Virus record (IMG/VR): IMGVR_UViG_2896595138_000006
DNA from: a virus
Lineage: Duplodnaviria; Heunggongvirae; Uroviricota; Caudoviricetes
Reading direction: 5' to 3' (one strand)
DNA: 12,498 bases
Part shown: in pieces, positions 2,966 through 8,624 of the stretch
Layout: each line of letters opens with the position of its first letter
Position numbering within the stretch: the stretch's first letter is position 1
Program-made: the position numbers and the translations under genes
The notes under the pieces: generated by a model
What the model saw: only the letters and a program-made list of their open reading frames with translations
Told to the model about the DNA's origin: nothing
Database searches by the model: none

Positions 2966-3280
2966 CCGCCTTTCTGAACAATTAACCCGCTGCGCCTTAT
3001 GTGTATGTGATCCCAAACATAAGCACGGGGATGATAGACGCTATCAGGCTGGTTCAGTTCGTTGCCATACCTGCAATGAGCGCGTTTCCCTGTACTCTTT
3101 AAGGAATTGCTCAAGGGCAAAAGCACATGGTGCGAATCTTTCTGATTCATGCTCGAGCGCCATATTTTCGTGCTCTCTGTTCGTTTTTTGCGATGGTGTA
3201 TTGGTTGATTCTTTGTTGGTCATTGTGTGTACCTGTAAAGCAATGCGCCGTAGCACCTCACGCCACGGCGCTGATAGTGA

Positions 3281-3478
3281 TTATTCTGATTCTTTGGCCT
3301 TCCTGCGCTGTTCATATTTTAATTTGCGTCCACAGGCATCTAAGACCCATGCGGAAAAATTAGCACTAGGATTAGTTAATTTTTCTTGTTCAACGCTGGC
3401 ATAAACCCCATCTATAAGCTCATGTGGGAATCGAATATTTTTCTTTGCTGATTTGTTGTTTGTGTTACCGCTAGACAT
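3281..3478 (-). CDS. Arc/Mnt-like ribbon-helix-helix DNA-binding protein (putative repressor)
   Basis: 65 aa. The segment NIRFPHELIDGVYASVEQEKLTNPSANFSAWVLDA resembles the beta-strand plus two-helix pattern of P22 Arc (..NLRWPREVLDLVRKVAEENGRSVNSEIYQRV..). Shine-Dalgarno GAGGT lies 6 nt before the ATG on the minus strand. Divergent from an operator-bearing promoter. Confidence 0.6.
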   Translation of the reverse strand: MSSGNTNNKSAKKNIRFPHELIDGVYASVEQEKLTNPSANFSAWVLDACGRKLKYEQRRKAKESE

Positions 3479-3505
3479 TGATGCACCTCACTTAAATGGA
3501 CTTTA

Positions 3506-3586
3506 TGGGCGCACACAATACAGCAAAAAAAATGAGATGTTAAGTATTGACATGTGCGCACACATGATTTTAATCTGTGCGCACAG
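3506..3586 (+). promoter_or_regulatory. Rightward sigma70-like promoter (TTGACA 3547-3552, 16-bp spacer, TTTAAT 3569-3574) with palindromic operators TGTGCGCACA at 3553-3562 and 3576-3585 and a 9/10 copy at 3506-3515
   Basis: Hexamers and perfect 10-bp palindromes read directly. One operator sits in the -35/-10 spacer and one at about +1; the third lies in the leader of the divergent RHH gene. Confidence 0.45.
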
Positions 3587-3846
3587 TTTGAGTTTTGTCA
3601 CTCAAATTAAGCAACGCCCCGCAGTGCTCGCAACACATGCAGGGCGTCTAACCACCAACGATAGCAACAGTATCGAGGTAGCTATGTTAAATCATACCAC
3701 ACACCTGCAAGGGCGGGACTCGCACAACCTGAATAAAGCGGGTATGAAAAACCAGTTGATCGCCACTGCCAGCCAAGGCTATGATTCGCGTGCACCTTAT
3801 AAAACGGGTGCCGGGATTAGGACCCCGCTGACAATCGAGGCGATAC

Positions 3847-3869
3847 AGACGCCGCACGCGTCTTTTTTT
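3847..3869 (+). terminator. Intrinsic terminator inside the rightward leader (AGACGC-cgcac-GCGTCT then T7)
   Basis: 6-bp stem 3847-3852/3858-3863, T run 3863-3869. Lies about 280 nt downstream of the promoter and before the first icd-like unit. Could define a leader RNA or an attenuator. Confidence 0.4.
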
Positions 3870-3931
3870 GTATCGACGCACACGCACACCTATACAATGG
3901 TGGGCTGTATGGGGCTACCTTCGGGTAGGCT

Positions 3932-4028
3932 GGTTCCCTTGATTGCCAGTAGTCCTAACCCTGTACAGTCCACCGCCAGCGAGCTTAGGACCTCCGGCGG
4001 TGGTTACATTCCATCAATCAAGGAGGCT
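3932..4028 (+). promoter_or_regulatory. Unit-1 leader element: anti-Shine-Dalgarno segment (3932-3945) complementary to the Shine-Dalgarno region (4015-4028) of the first icd-like ORF
   Basis: CCTTGATTG (3937-3945) is the exact reverse complement of CAATCAAGG (4015-4023), which overlaps the Shine-Dalgarno sequence AAGGAGG (4020-4026). Confidence 0.35.
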
Positions 4029-4034
4029 GCCGAC

Positions 4035-4223
4035 ATGGCTACTACCCCTACCCTTGTACATTCTCAAACAGCCTTTCTCTGGCGCTTTATCGCCTTTGGT
4101 GCGTCAGAGTCCCAAATCATCCACGTCACCGCCTGGACTGAACGCGAAGCGCGTAACCATTGCCCGTCCGGTTGTGTTGCTGTATTCGCGGCCCGTATTC
4201 GTCAGGGGGTTGGCCATGCGTAA
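4035..4223 (+). CDS. Small Icd-like/Ash-family protein (62 aa); a longer in-frame form could begin at ATG 3897
   Basis: Strong Shine-Dalgarno AAGGAGG 8 nt upstream of the ATG at 4035. Motifs FLWRF, TAWTEREAR and FAARIRQG are shared with the downstream paralogue. The family name is recalled from annotations of P4-like islands, not verified. Confidence 0.55.
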   Translation: MATTPTLVHSQTAFLWRFIAFGASESQIIHVTAWTEREARNHCPSGCVAVFAARIRQGVGHA

Positions 4224-4315
4224 AAACAACTTGCAAAAAATTACCGTGGGGCTGTATTCTTCCCCGTCGCCCACATGGCGACCGGGTTTGACAGCCTGAA
4301 TAGCAAAGCGGACAG

Positions 4316-4344
4316 CCGCTTACATTCCGATATGCGGTTTTTTT
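4316..4344 (+). terminator. Terminator-like hairpin plus T7 run between the two icd-like units
   Basis: CCGC (4316-4319) and GCGG (4334-4337) flank a 14-nt loop, followed by T run 4338-4344. An alternative tight hairpin GCGG-acag-CCGC lies at 4308-4319. Same position relative to unit 2 as the terminator at 3847-3869 has relative to unit 1. Confidence 0.3.
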
Positions 4345-4409
4345 GTGTCCGTAAACCTACCCATACCCGCATTATGGCGGGGCGTAACGGGGGAGCCTTT
4401 GCGCTCGCT

Positions 4410-4502
4410 GGTTTCTTTGCTGCCAGTCTGTCAACCCTGTTACGTCCCGCCACCATGTTTGACAGCGTGCTGGCGAGACTCCTTACATCAAGCAAAGGAG
4501 CC
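4410..4502 (+). promoter_or_regulatory. Unit-2 leader element: anti-Shine-Dalgarno segment (4410-4421) complementary to the Shine-Dalgarno region (4491-4502) of the second icd-like ORF
   Basis: GGTTTCTTTGCT can pair with AGCAAAGGAGCC over 12 positions (10 Watson-Crick plus 2 G-U), covering the Shine-Dalgarno sequence AAAGGAG (4494-4500). Confidence 0.35.
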
Positions 4503-4508
4503 TTTCAC

Positions 4509-4682
4509 ATGGCTGTATCCGCACGCCCTTACTTTGTCTGGCGCTTTATGCAGTGCCTGACAGACAGCATTGCAATATTCACCGTTACCGCAGCCACTGA
4601 ACGCGAAGCCCGCGCGCAGCTGCCGCACGCACATCTGATTTTTGTCGCCCGTATTCGCCAGGGGGAAACCTATGCACAATAA
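4509..4682 (+). CDS. Small Icd-like/Ash-family protein, paralogue of 4035-4223 (57 aa); a longer in-frame form could begin at ATG 4374
   Basis: Shine-Dalgarno AAAGGAG 8 nt upstream. Shares WRF, TEREAR and ARIRQGE motifs with the upstream copy, with DNA-level similarity across the unit. Confidence 0.55.
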   Translation: MAVSARPYFVWRFMQCLTDSIAIFTVTAATEREARAQLPHAHLIFVARIRQGETYAQ

Positions 4683-4893
4683 AACCACACCGGACGCAGC
4701 CGCCGCCGCACTCACTACGCTGATGCACGCGCTTATTGATATTGAATGCACAGCAGAGCTTGCACGAAAGGAAGAACGGGAAGAATACACATTGTTCGCC
4801 CTGGAATGTATCCGATACATCGCAACGCGGTCGCTGAATGACGCTAAAAATATTCTTGTTGCTGATTGTGAAAATGGGGGGTGCCCCTATTAA
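4672..4893 (+). CDS. Hypothetical protein (73 aa)
   Basis: Start overlaps the stop of the preceding ORF (ATGCACAATAA), suggesting translational coupling. GGGGGAA lies upstream. Stop is 13 bp from the end of the IS110-family recombinase gene, so the 3' end may have been altered by the insertion. Confidence 0.45.
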   Translation: MHNKTTPDAAAAALTTLMHALIDIECTAELARKEEREEYTLFALECIRYIATRSLNDAKNILVADCENGGCPY

Positions 4894-4906
4894 GTTGTCA
4901 AGCATG

Positions 4907-6103
4907 TTATGACCCCTGCGGGGTATAAAAAGTCCCGTCGCGCATCATGGCGAACAGAACGTCGCAGCGTCGTCTCGCCAGGGCGATAAGCGCCTGATTG
5001 TGTCGTTTTCCCTGACTCATTTTGCGGGTGTAGTAAGCCCTGGAGAGCGGATCCCTGAGCGCGGCGAAGGCCAACAGGAACAACGCCCGTTTGAGAGCTT
5101 TATTACCCCGTCGCGAGGGATGCTCACCGCGTATTGACGAGCCGGATCGCCGAGTTACCGGCGCAAGGCCAGCATAAGCAGCGAGATGTGCGGCAGAGGC
5201 GAAGGCGCGGCAGGCGACCTCGGTGAGGAGTCTGGCTGCGGTCCTGACACCGACTCCGGGCATACTGGTCAGGACCGGGTAAAGAGGGTGAGCAAGAACT
5301 CGCTGTTCTACCTCAAGCGCCACCTCGTCTCTTTGCTTACGCAGCGTGATGAGCTGGAGTGCCAGACGTGGCAGTACTACGGCAGCGGCATTCGTGCCGG
5401 GAACGACGACGGTTTGTTCGGCCAGTGCCTGAGCTATGTCTGCTGCAAGGCGTTTACCCAGACGAGGCGCAAGTTTGCAGAGCTGGGCTGCCAGCTTCTT
5501 CTCACCCAGCGAAGCGAGTTTTTCTGGTGAGGGATATCGCTGGAGAAGATCGAGTACCGCCGGGTGCTCAAGTCTCGGACCGAGAACGCGCTCCAGTGCC
5601 GGATGTATCTGGGTCAGAAGGCCGCGGAGACGGTTGCTGGCCTGCGTTGTCTGTGCGGCAAGATCATCATCGAAGCCGCAGAGCATGGAGAGTTCGGCGA
5701 TTTGCTCGTCAGCCAGTTTCAGCGTGCGTAGCGCGTGAGGCAGGGTACGGGCAGCTTCGGCAATGATGGCAGCGTCACGAGCATCAGTTTTAGCTTCACC
5801 GGCGTGTAAGTCGGCTATGCGGCGCATGGCCAGTCCAGGGAGGTATCCGACAAGGACTCCTTCTGAGCGGGCAACGGCGACAGGTAACGCACCGATGGTA
5901 GCTGGCTGATCAACAACCAGCAGTATCTGACCATGTTGTTTCAGGTCAGATATTAGCGACCTGAGTTTGTTTTCGTCGTTGGGTAATGCTTTATCGAACA
6001 GGCGTTTACCTGAACGATTAATGGCAACAGCGTGATGCGTATCTTTACCGACATCAACGCCGATAAAGACCTGGACGGATTCGTAATCGCTGGATTCGGT
6101 CAT
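4907..6103 (-). CDS. IS110-family transposase/recombinase (N-terminal DEDD RuvC-like domain plus C-terminal Transposase_20 domain)
   Basis: N-terminus VFIGVDVGKDTHHAVAI and C-terminal LTSMPGVGVRTAARLL...AAYAGLAPVTRRSGSS are the hallmark motifs of IS110-family enzymes. Shine-Dalgarno AGGGAG lies 5 nt before the ATG on the minus strand. Confidence 0.9.
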   Translation of the reverse strand: MTESSDYESVQVFIGVDVGKDTHHAVAINRSGKRLFDKALPNDENKLRSLISDLKQHGQILLVVDQPATIGALPVAVARSEGVLVGYLPGLAMRRIADLHAGEAKTDARDAAIIAEAARTLPHALRTLKLADEQIAELSMLCGFDDDLAAQTTQASNRLRGLLTQIHPALERVLGPRLEHPAVLDLLQRYPSPEKLASLGEKKLAAQLCKLAPRLGKRLAADIAQALAEQTVVVPGTNAAAVVLPRLALQLITLRKQRDEVALEVEQRVLAHPLYPVLTSMPGVGVRTAARLLTEVACRAFASAAHLAAYAGLAPVTRRSGSSIRGEHPSRRGNKALKRALFLLAFAALRDPLSRAYYTRKMSQGKRHNQALIALARRRCDVLFAMMRDGTFYTPQGS

Positions 6104-6330
6104 TCTGTCTCCCTTGTATATGGGTTAACCAGATAACCACGGGGAGCAGGTACCGGCATCCACGTTACAGACGGTCCCGGCAAAAGTGCCTGACCTGACC
6201 CCTATTAGCGATTACCAGCGCCCCACCAGACCCGGTGACATCACCCCCGGATCATGGACGACTGGGGGCAGTAATCATGCCGGGTCTGGCTGGCTAACAC
6301 CCCATTATAAGGGGTACGAATAAAGTAACG
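6104..6330 (-). ncRNA. Candidate bridge (guide) RNA region of the IS110-family element
   Basis: The non-coding 5' flank of the recombinase contains a 10-bp perfect inverted repeat CCAGACCCGG (6226-6235) / CCGGGTCTGG (6280-6289) enclosing a CCCCC/GGGGG inner stem, plus a further hairpin at 6299-6315. IS110-group elements are known to encode a structured RNA here. Not folded or searched. Confidence 0.3.
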
Positions 6331-6335
6331 GGGTT

Positions 6336-6569
6336 ATGCGTGATATTTACATTGAAATAACAGACCGCGCATTTCTTGCACTTTCTCACAGTGAAAATAT
6401 GTTGGAAATATTGCAAATGTGTCTGGAAACATTTGGCGATAATGAGCGTGATAAACAGAAATCAAGGATTGTCACGGCATTAATAACGCTTCTTGAGCCT
6501 GTAATAAATGAGTTGCAGGAAATAGAGACATTACACGACCAGTATAAAGCGCCCCACACCGGAGAATAA
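6336..6569 (+). CDS. Hypothetical protein (77 aa)
   Basis: ATG start with a weak GGGG upstream. Predicted helical, no recognisable motif. Lies immediately beside the probable IS boundary. Confidence 0.4.
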   Translation: MRDIYIEITDRAFLALSHSENMLEILQMCLETFGDNERDKQKSRIVTALITLLEPVINELQEIETLHDQYKAPHTGE

Positions 6570-6681: not shown

Positions 6682-6873
6682 GTGGAGGAACGGCGCGTAA
6701 CCTACCGTCGTGAAGGCTACGAATATGATTGCGTGATGCCTGTTTATCAGTTCGACCGTGATTTTTCTCTTGTGCAGGCCGTACCGCGTAACGTGCCCAC
6801 CAGCAGGGAGAAAGCACGCGCCAATATTCAGGAAATAAAAAAGATGCTTAACGTATTCAGGGGTAAAAAATGA
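6682..6873 (+). CDS. Hypothetical protein (63 aa, GTG start), translationally coupled to the primase gene
   Basis: Its stop overlaps the primase start (ATGA at 6870-6873). Upstream Shine-Dalgarno spacing is poor, so the start is uncertain. Confidence 0.35.
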   Translation: MEERRVTYRREGYEYDCVMPVYQFDRDFSLVQAVPRNVPTSREKARANIQEIKKMLNVFRGKK

Positions 6874-8624
6874 AACTGGCACCGAACGTAAAAAAACAGC
6901 CACGCGGAATAAAACACAAAGACACAGAGGTAATTATCTTTGCGGGTAGTGATGCCTGGGCACACGCGAAACAGTGGCAGGAACATGACGCGCGTACAGC
7001 CGGAGATAATGAGCCTCCTGTGTGGCTTGGAGAGCAGCAGCTATCCGAACTGGATAATCTGCAAATTGTGCCGGATGGCAGAAAATCAGCACGCATATAC
7101 AGAGCCGGACATCTTGAGCCTGTAATGATCAAGGCGATTGGTCAGAAGCTGGCGGCGGCAGGTGTACAGGATGCAAATTTTTATCTTGAGGGTATGCACG
7201 GCCAGGAGGTGCAGAACTGGCGCGAATATCTGGCCCGTGAACGCCAGAATCTTTCTGATGGTCTGGTCATTGAGCTTCCGGTAAAGCAAAAGGCGCAACT
7301 TTCGCAGATGGCAGACAGTGAGCGCGCACAGATGCTTGCTGGTCGATTTGATGGCGTTTGTGTGCATCCGGAAAGTGAAATCGTTCACGTATGGCGCGGC
7401 GGGATATGGTGTCCGGTCAGCACAATGGAACTGAGCCGCGAAATGGTGGCGGTTTATTCAGAACACGGGGCCACATTCAGCAAGCGGGCAATTAATAACG
7501 CCGTTGAAGCGTTAAAAGTTATTGCTGACCCGATGGGCGAGCCGTCCAGTGATTTGCTACCGTTCACTAATGGTGTGCTTAACCTGAAAACGGGGGAATT
7601 TTCCCCGCACACGCCGGAGAACTGGATCACCACGCACAACGGCATTGAGTACACGCCACCAGCACCAGGGGAGAATATCCGCGACAACGCGCCAAACTTT
7701 CATAAATGGCTTGATCACGCAGCCGGAAAAGACCCGCGCAAGATGATGCGCATATGTGCCGCGCTTTACATGATTATGGCGAACCGGTACGACTGGCAGA
7801 TGTTTATTGAGGCCACCGGAGACGGCGGGAGCGGTAAAAGTACATTCACACACATAGCCAGCCTTCTGGCAGGGAAACAGAACACGGTAAGCGCTGAAAT
7901 GACATCGCTTGATGATGCTGGTGGACGTGCGCAGGTTGTCGGGAGTCGTCTTATCGTCCTGGCTGACCAGCCGAAATATACAGGCGAAGGAACGGGCATC
8001 AAGAAAATCACGGGCGGCGACCCCGTGGAAATTAACCCGAAATATGAAAAGCGTTTCACGGCGGTAATCAGGGCGGTGGTGCTGGCGACCGACAACAACC
8101 CGATGATATTCACCGAACGGGCCGGAGGTGTGGCACGTCGTCGCGTGATTTTCCGTTTCGACAATATCGTCAGTGAGGCCGAAAAAGACAGGGAGCTACC
8201 GGAAAAGATTGCGGCTGAAATCCCCGTTATTATCCGCCGATTGCTGGCGAACTTTACCGACCCTGAGAAGGCACGGGCTTTACTACTGGAACAGCGTGAC
8301 GGTGATGAAGCACTGGCAATAAAGCAACAGACGGATCCGGTTATTGAGTTTTGCCAGTTCCTGAATTTTCTGGAGGAAGCGCGCGGCCTGATGATGGGTG
8401 GCGGTGGTGATTCAGTGAAGTACACGACCAGGAACAGCCTTTACCGCGTCTATCTGGCGTTTATGGCATACGCAGGCAGGAGCAAACCGCTAAACGTAAA
8501 TGACTTTGGCAAGGCTATGAAGCCTGCCGCAAAAGTTTACGGACATGAATATATTACGCGGAAAGTTAAGGGGGTAACGCAGACTAACGCAATAACAACA
8601 GACGAGTGCGACGCGTTTTTATAA
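6870..8624 (+). CDS. Primase/helicase, phage P4 alpha-like (D5-N-type plus SF3 helicase domain)
   Basis: 584 aa. Walker A motif ATGDGGSGKSTF and the surrounding pattern (IVLADQP, VLATDNNP) match the P4-family primase C-terminal helicase domain as remembered. The N-terminal 200 aa are consistent with a Toprim-like domain. Followed by the iteron cluster. Confidence 0.88.
   Translation: MKLAPNVKKQPRGIKHKDTEVIIFAGSDAWAHAKQWQEHDARTAGDNEPPVWLGEQQLSELDNLQIVPDGRKSARIYRAGHLEPVMIKAIGQKLAAAGVQDANFYLEGMHGQEVQNWREYLARERQNLSDGLVIELPVKQKAQLSQMADSERAQMLAGRFDGVCVHPESEIVHVWRGGIWCPVSTMELSREMVAVYSEHGATFSKRAINNAVEALKVIADPMGEPSSDLLPFTNGVLNLKTGEFSPHTPENWITTHNGIEYTPPAPGENIRDNAPNFHKWLDHAAGKDPRKMMRICAALYMIMANRYDWQMFIEATGDGGSGKSTFTHIASLLAGKQNTVSAEMTSLDDAGGRAQVVGSRLIVLADQPKYTGEGTGIKKITGGDPVEINPKYEKRFTAVIRAVVLATDNNPMIFTERAGGVARRRVIFRFDNIVSEAEKDRELPEKIAAEIPVIIRRLLANFTDPEKARALLLEQRDGDEALAIKQQTDPVIEFCQFLNFLEEARGLMMGGGGDSVKYTTRNSLYRVYLAFMAYAGRSKPLNVNDFGKAMKPAAKVYGHEYITRKVKGVTQTNAITTDECDAFL

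Follow-up and report, generated by a model that had tools for sequence, protein, structure and literature searches.

We observed that a leftward gene for a 65-aa protein and the intergenic region that it borders are well supported, from the comparison of related loci, as an autoregulated repressor-operator cassette. The gene lies in the window (i.e. the whole 12,498-nucleotide stretch of DNA that was analysed). The protein is probably a ribbon-helix-helix (RHH) repressor that acts on three operators, is of the autoregulated maintenance type, and co-evolves with its sites as an immunity-type cassette. The layout of the cassette, its conservation, the covariation of the protein with its operators, the exchange of cassettes between islands and the independence from AlpA were all computed. 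The design (an autoregulated RHH protein with operators over divergent promoters) is a classical one, and the value of the finding lies in the annotation and in a testable question, not in a new mechanism.

The window is a phage-satellite island of E. coli

The whole window is a phage-inducible chromosomal island (PICI) of the EcCICFT073 type, an E. coli phage-satellite island, and its gene order is the same as that of EcCICFT073 in CFT073. The integrase gene (1-795) is truncated by the window edge. It is followed by an AlpA-like gene (1271-1477) and, directly past alpA, by an IS4-family insertion (1527-2952), whose ends were defined against locus L113 (98% identical). Next come a 59-aa ORF (3044-3223, minus strand; phrog_21027, with no known function) and the 65-aa RHH ORF (3281-3478, minus strand, ATG start), for which all the coordinates of the preliminary description were exact. 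The 59-aa ORF lies downstream of the RHH gene on the same strand, and its C-terminus, HESERFAPCAFALEQFLKEYRE, is conserved. A GC-rich hairpin (3245-3271, minus strand), terminator-like with a weak T tail, stands directly 3' of the RHH stop codon. On its other side, the RHH gene is bordered by a 200-bp intergenic region. The order of int, alpA and a leftward RHH gene facing a rightward early operon was common to the window, L001, L118 and EcCICFT073.

Further to the right, the primase gene (6870-8624) is followed by an SSB gene and a lambda-E-type capsid gene. An IS110-family insertion (4666-6543, with its transposase at 4907-6103 on the minus strand) lies between the second Icd-like ORF of the early operon and the DUF4222 and primase genes, parting the early promoter from the primase in the window copy. 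Since the replication genes are thereby severed from the promoter under regulation, the island of the window is probably defective, with the cassette itself intact. The exact window cassette was found in 69 of 5426 complete E. coli genomes.

The 65-aa protein belongs to the YlcI/YnfO family

The protein falls in the YlcI/YnfO family (NF041551, 57.9 bits against a cut-off of 30). It was also matched by Pfam DUF3950 (PF13132, 26.1 bits against a cut-off of 25) and by phrog_949 (E 3e-26). All three are families without an assigned function. In the searchable literature (subscription journals lie outside it) we found no functional study of YlcI, YnfO or DUF3950, and none that ties an RHH protein to satellite regulation. 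The motifs IRFPHE and NFSxWV were invariant and common to 82 homologues across the Enterobacterales. The gene is under purifying selection, with a pN of 0.11-0.21 against a pS of 0.65-0.99 (saturated), and a direct reading of the sequence places its Shine-Dalgarno (GAGGT) at 3485-3490 on the minus strand, six bases upstream of the start.

In the AF2 model of the monomer, residues 1-18 were extended and were followed by a helix (19-35), a loop and a second helix (41-64), with the turn NPSANFS. This agrees with the architecture of RHH proteins, which have an N-terminal strand, two helices and a turn of the G/N-x-S/T type before helix 2. The strand itself was unformed in the monomer; this is expected, since the RHH fold exists only as a dimer. 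We propose that residues 1-14 form an N-terminal arm in which residues 11, 12 and 14 determine specificity, that IRFPHE (15-20) is the invariant strand, and that the two modelled helices complete the protein.

The weak Pfam matches of members of the family fell in RHH families only (HicB-like, Arc, NikA, CopG and RHH_1). The threshold of the Arc family (PF03869) was not reached, with one of 41 family members at E 0.009 and no match for the window protein. When the protein was aligned by hhalign with the Arc sequence, N14-I-R16-F-P-H-E fell on N11-L-R13-W-P-R-E of Arc at a probability of 9%, which makes the alignment a pointer only. The motif N-x-R-[WF]-P-x-E-[VL]-[LI]-D was aligned with residues 11-20 of Arc. 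A Foldseek search of the AF2 monomer against the PDB gave zero matches, and the sole match of a profile search of PDB sequences (RFPHELI in Shq1) was spurious and was rejected. The predicted fold and the N-x-R-F-P-x-E strand motif fit the Arc-like RHH identity proposed earlier, and this identity is supported by the model and by the family comparison.

Three candidate operators lie on two divergent promoters

The rightward promoter has a perfect -35, TTGACA (3547-3552, plus strand), of which TTGAC is nearly invariant among relatives. Its -10 is TAATCT (3571-3576, plus strand), at a spacer of 18 bp and conserved as TAAnGT in 58 non-redundant relatives. An alternative -10, TTTAAT (3569-3574, plus strand; 16-bp spacer), misses the A at position 2. 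The promoter had been described as near-consensus with TTTAAT as its -10; we found that this holds for the -35, whereas the conserved -10 hexamer is TAATCT. The rule on A2 kept the promoter scanner from reporting the rightward promoter, and we used the conservation within the family instead. For the leftward promoter, the scanner gave TTAACA-17-TATTGT (3543-3515). The leftward -10, TATTGT (3515-3520, minus strand), has T1, A2 and T6 conserved in 58 relatives, while the candidate -35, TTAACA (3538-3543, minus strand), is poorly conserved and stands back to back with the rightward -35.

The palindrome TGTGCGCACA was found exact at 3553-3562 and 3576-3585, and a 9/10 copy, TGGGCGCACA, at 3506-3515 in the leader of the RHH gene, all as reported before. 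We treat the three as candidate operators. O1, the 9/10 copy and the imperfect one among the three, spans about -7 to +3 on the leftward promoter of the RHH gene itself, where we propose that it serves for autoregulation. O2, a perfect palindrome, falls between the -35 and the -10 on the rightward side (about -30 to -21). O3, also perfect, lies 23 bp from O2 and extends over about -7 to +3 on the rightward side. Transcription is predicted to start at about 3583 (plus strand) and about 3508 (minus strand). The final base of the rightward -10 is the first base of O3, and the leftward -10 finishes on the first base of O1 in the same register. The -10 with O3 and O1 with the leftward -10 are mirror images, forming an inverted repeat (3506-3520 and 3571-3585).

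At one mismatch or fewer, the 12.5 kb held these three sites and no others (0.6 expected; three or more in 3 of 200 shuffles), and all of them lay inside 80 bp of the one intergenic region. A search at two mismatches across the island gave no convincing further site, and the idea of additional operators elsewhere in the island was rejected. Two IMG/VR variants of the window cassette were rearranged at these sites. In L058, O2 and O3 were fused and the -10 was lost (TTGACATGTGCGCACAGTTTGAG); in L057, the unit from O2 to the -10 was duplicated. Both look like products of recombination between the repeated operators.

The candidate operators covary with the N-terminal residues of the protein

We compared 41 loci from species-representative genomes and 67 from IMG/VR, of which 62 were left after the removal of redundancy. 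In these ~110 related loci, which come from the Enterobacterales, Pasteurellaceae and Orbaceae, one site abutted each divergent -10 and a third lay in the rightward spacer. The order was conserved as site 1, ATACA (the leftward -10), an A-run, TTGAC, site 2, ~11 nt including the -10, site 3 and the leader. The O2-O3 spacing was 23 bp in 58 of the 62 non-redundant loci. The sites had the general form (G)TGT-NNNN-ACA(C), with a centre that varied between elements and agreed among the three sites of one element (mean distance of O2 to O3, 0.12 within a locus against 0.34 between loci).

The operator idea had been said to fail if the palindromes were absent from orthologous islands that retain the gene. 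We observed that TGTGCGCACA was often missing from such islands, but another repeated site stood at the same three positions. These replacement sites covaried with the N-terminal residues of the protein, an outcome that favours the operator idea. Across loci, operator distance was correlated with distance in the tetrapeptide that precedes IRFPH (r=0.66, with a partial correlation of 0.64 after control for the other 38 residues; p<=0.0005 by Mantel tests, which are liberal for related sequences). For the remaining 38 residues, the correlation was 0.22 (partial -0.16). Some covariation is expected from linkage, since the gene and its operators are less than 100 bp apart. The main safeguard is that two parts of one 200-bp gene, the N-terminal residues and the remainder, behave differently, which would be hard to explain by linkage alone.

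The classes of residues and sites were consistent across genera. Proteins with xKKN, TKKG or AKKY had sites with the centre GCGC, those with x[YF]KG (in Pectobacterium, Xenorhabdus, Pantoea and Morganella) had TTTAAA, and those with TTKG had ATAT, ATGT or TTGT. AKKH was paired with GTGGGTnCACAC, ATKK with GTGTGGCCGCAC, AQKK with GTGTACCCCCAC (one site being inverted), QLKN with TGTCTACACAC, ATKG with GTGCCCCAACAC, DRKA with GTGTGCCCACAC, and KRKD (in Gilliamella and Orbus) with TGTGCGGACA. The sites of some classes (L014, and Gilliamella/Orbus) were non-palindromic. In five loci (L006, L009, L010, L065 and L073), TGTGCGCACA was exact three times, although the synonymous sites of the gene were saturated. 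The code is not a simple one-residue rule, since residue 14 changed from N to Y in L076 without a change of the operator, and EKKN (L024) was paired with a site unlike that of AKKN. If residues 11-14 read the centre, the change K12Y/N14G (AKKN to GYKG) should shift the preference from TGTGCGCACA toward GTGTTTAAACAC.

These comparative data effectively exclude that the repeats arose by chance or are RNA or DNA hairpins (e.g. the terminator-like CATGTG-CGCA-CACATG). The scanner does mark 3551-3566 as terminator-like. However, O2 lies upstream of the rightward start, the sites of other classes are non-palindromic or have no T run, and the position of the sites is kept while their sequence is replaced concertedly.

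The cassette is exchanged between islands independently of AlpA

Sister E. coli islands with common flanks differed over 3311 to ~3641, with the exchange breakpoints at ~3310 and ~3642. The terminator-like hairpin at 3245-3271 falls in the block that is kept when cassettes are exchanged. Three of these islands carried another YlcI/YnfO allele, each with its own triple palindrome (CTGGAATCCAG in L116, GTGTTCAACAC in L117 and GTGGGCCACAC in EcCICFT073). Two others, L112 and L113, had in the place of the cassette small proteins matching the PHROG 'Arc-like repressor', again each with its own repeats. In EcCICFT073 (L120 15931-26655, from NC_004431.1), the leftward YlcI/YnfO gene (L120 18474-18653) faces TTGAC-GTGGGCCACAC...TATA-GTGGGCCACAC, and GTGGGGGACAG adjoins the leftward -10. 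In the coordinates of NC_004431, this gene is at 1380473-1380652. Judged by its gene and its putative sites, EcCICFT073, the prototype Gram-negative PICI, has the same cassette.

Between the window and L113, AlpA was 97% identical, while the RHH proteins differed (17%) and the operators differed. Between the window and L001, AlpA was 28% identical, while the RHH protein was the same (95%) and the operators were the same. The sites are therefore independent of AlpA, and AlpA was rejected as the binder of the palindromes.

It could still be argued that the palindromes are operators of AlpA, of a host protein or of a repressor from the helper phage, the RHH gene being merely their neighbour. AlpA is the only regulator that has been tested experimentally in islands of the EcCICFT073 type (PMC6092414). 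We consider this reading very unlikely, since the sites follow the N-terminal residues of the RHH protein and not AlpA, and elements with a different leftward RHH gene have different sites. A host or helper protein would also leave unexplained the more than 16 site classes, each of which is paired with an RHH allele across genera.

We also evaluated whether the RHH protein could be an antitoxin paired with the ORF at 3044-3223 (minus strand), with sites that autoregulate that pair only. This is more improbable still. The ORF is confined to E. coli backbones, being absent from the other ~70 loci, and it is found behind the unrelated Arc-like cassette of L113 as well. A hairpin stands between the two ORFs, and two of the three sites, the best ones, are on the opposite promoter. 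As no conserved co-occurring toxin partner was found, membership in a type II toxin-antitoxin system was rejected.

The rightward promoter feeds a structured leader and immunity RNAs

O3 is followed directly by a structured 5' leader of the rightward transcript (3614-3675, plus strand), which ends just before the Shine-Dalgarno and the ATG at 3684. The leader is made up of a long hairpin (3614-3647), single-stranded TCTAACCACCAACG / UCUAACCACCAACG and a small hairpin (3659-3675). Its structure had a z of -3.8, and 13 of 15 pairs showed compensatory changes in 32 diverse sequences. No Rfam family matched the leader, and it was also found behind the alternative cassettes.

The operon then carries two tandem modules of the P4/P1 type (3779-3980 and 4254-4457, plus strand), each consisting of a target and a C4 RNA with an Icd-like ORF behind them. 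The operon opens with an isrK-family RNA (3792-3868, plus strand; 64 bits, cut-off 50), i.e. a P4 seqA-like target with an intrinsic terminator. The C4 antisense (P4 CI-like) immunity RNA is present in two copies, at 3893-3980 (plus strand; 78.6 bits) and at 4370-4457 (plus strand; 74.8 bits), both above the gathering cut-off of 45. The second target (4254-4344, plus strand) is a1b1/isrK-like and falls below the Rfam thresholds (c4-a1b1 38 bits, isrK 35 bits). One ORF (3684-4223, plus strand), with an Icd-like domain at its C-terminus, overlaps the RNA genes like the P4 'cI ORF', and a second ORF (4275-4682, plus strand) also ends in an Icd-like domain. The isrK RNA is equivalent to seqA, and C4 to CI (PMC10111431). 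We thus find here, as in immunity of the P4/P1 type, a C4/CI RNA with its target upstream in one transcript. That the regulated promoter first feeds isrK/seqA-like and C4 RNAs and Icd-like ORFs was a point absent from the earlier reading.

A maintenance-type repressor is the preferred reading

From the sequence comparisons we infer binding, repression and a role in maintenance. The protein, built like Arc and placed like Mnt, would bind as dimers to the three sites of 10-12 bp of the form given above. At O2 (in the spacer) and O3 (at the -10/+1 junction), it would jointly block RNA polymerase at a strong rightward early promoter, which would drive the immunity RNAs and the Icd-like ORFs and, where the element is intact, also the genes for primase and SSB. 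At O1, in the same register on its own divergent promoter, it would exert negative autoregulation at a higher protein level. Since O1 is the weakest copy, self-limitation of the protein would set in only after the early promoter is shut, which is the logic of a maintenance repressor of the CI/Mnt type. It would resemble Mnt and CI more than Arc and Cro, since its gene is divergent from the controlled operon and the strongest sites are on the promoter of that operon.

The variable site centre would be read by the N-terminal arm together with the strand, and above all by residue 12 (the position of Gln9 in Arc). Protein and operators would therefore evolve and be recombined as one unit, an immunity-type cassette that would exist in many heterospecific versions among the Gram-negative PICIs. 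The early operon may be doubly locked, by the protein at initiation and by RNA afterwards. The same double control is known from P1 immI, in which the protein repressor C1 acts at Op51 alongside the c4 RNA. The earlier proposal of autoregulation together with repression of the rightward operon was supported by the comparison, in which the three palindromes behave as putative operators on two divergent promoters.

Tight repression sits awkwardly with immunity of the P4 type, where the early promoter must fire for the immunity RNA to be made. The same protein and sites might serve instead for a transient shut-off like that of Arc, Cro or Vis after induction or entry, with quiescence kept by the C4/isrK RNA and the absence of AlpA. 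Such a role would suit an operon headed by immunity RNAs of the P4 type; in P4 itself, these RNAs depend on an early promoter that is active in the lysogen. It would also suit the stable immunity of P4 without such a gene, and the induction of EcCICFT073 by AlpA alone (PMC6092414). We nevertheless regard the shut-off as rather unlikely. Whereas arc and cro are transcribed together with the early operon, the RHH gene is divergent and is read from a separate promoter; the early promoter has the strongest sites and the RHH promoter the weakest, which is the design of a maintenance repressor; and many heterospecific cassettes are typical of immunity repressors. For these reasons we prefer a maintenance repressor over a transient one.

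The preliminary description had gone further and had proposed a master repressor functionally analogous to Stl of the SaPIs. The position agrees with this, since Stl and Rpr of the Gram-positive PICIs also lie between int and the replication operon and are divergent from the latter (PMC6092414), and the RHH gene is divergent from the early operon on the int side. A similar role in the silence of the island is plausible. However, Stl and Rpr are larger and have a separate helper-sensing part, whereas the RHH protein has 65 aa and no evident sensor domain. Induction of islands of the EcCICFT073 type has also been published to run via AlpA. Over-expressed AlpA is by itself sufficient to trigger the excision and pri-dependent replication of EcCICFT073, helpers act by inducing alpA, AlpA is an activator and not a repressor, and the global repressor in Gram-negative PICIs was called 'unclear' (PMC6092414). 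The functional analogy with Stl was not supported. The RHH protein is, on the present comparison, a good candidate for the global repressor of Gram-negative PICIs.

As EcCICFT073 has the same cassette and is induced by AlpA alone, AlpA would have to override or bypass the candidate repressor. Possible routes are an antirepressor, or transcription that begins at the alpA promoter and runs on through the convergent RHH gene. In some islands, Rha/AntA-AntB/Bro-N-like proteins were seen between alpA and the leftward genes (L116 910-1879; L120 17714-18243). The version in CFT073 is an unannotated Bro-N-like reading frame, and such proteins are candidate antirepressors in the AlpA-driven transcript.

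As a wider and tentative proposal, which we put forward as possible but more doubtful than not, the YlcI/YnfO RHH cassettes could be the missing repressor/immunity determinant of Gram-negative PICIs including EcCICFT073. There would be at least 16 heterospecific types, with residue 12 as the main determinant. The early promoter would stay shut until AlpA-driven transcription or an antirepressor of the alpA operon bypasses it, and a lambdoid paralogue (41% identical) could cross-talk.

Comparison with known systems

One close likeness in design is to immI of P22. Mnt and Arc are small proteins of the RHH fold whose N-terminal strand recognises DNA, mnt is divergent from the promoter that it represses with the operator overlapping that promoter, and antisense RNA is also used in the controlled region. 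The positional substitutes in sister islands match the PHROG 'Arc-like repressor'. The two systems differ in that there are here three separate 10-12 bp sites over two promoters, as against a single 21-bp operator in P22. The controlled genes here are a satellite early/replication operon with a C4 RNA, whereas in P22 they are those of the antirepressor of the phage c2 repressor.

The operon resembles the PLE region of P4 and immI of P1/P7 (c4-icd-ant) in its C4/CI-type RNA, isrK/seqA-type targets, Icd-like ORFs and alpha-type primase, with a Vis/AlpA-like gene upstream. Unlike the window, P4 has no protein repressor gene beside PLE, and we found no homologue and no ORF with IRFPH/NFSxW anywhere in the P4 genome. 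As for P1, the gene for C1 lies elsewhere, and C1 does not belong to the RHH proteins.

Members of the same family (NF041551/PF13132) include YlcI of DLP12, YnfO of Qin and a homologue at the right end of lambda. In lambdoid phages (lambda, DE3, many Stx phages and phage O276, L114 200-394), this paralogue of lambda type lies near the right cos end and is often unannotated; it is 41% identical and retains IRFP and NFSAWV. Unlike the PICI gene, the lambdoid copies stand near cos, between lysis and packaging genes, and an operator-like three-site layout on divergent promoters was sought upstream of the lambda-type paralogue and not found. Lambda is a known PICI helper, and it is conceivable that the lambdoid paralogue heterodimerises with the PICI protein or competes with it for the operators.

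The cassette offers a concrete candidate for the repressor gap in PICI biology, namely a member of DUF3950 in the position of Stl/Rpr with its own putative operators, which is also present in EcCICFT073. The cassettes together form a natural series of protein-operator pairs, a possible source of small orthogonal repressors, and they predict heteroimmunity groups among satellites.

In vB_KppS-Ant (L002 6997-7971) and in Pasteurella Pmp7 (L003 4435-5109), both satellite-sized 'phages', the annotation leaves out the RHH ORF, which runs antisense to a long CDS that is annotated. The long CDS of Pmp7 is labelled 'transcriptional repressor', a label apparently carried over from the old annotation of the P4 'cI ORF' that overlaps the CI RNA.
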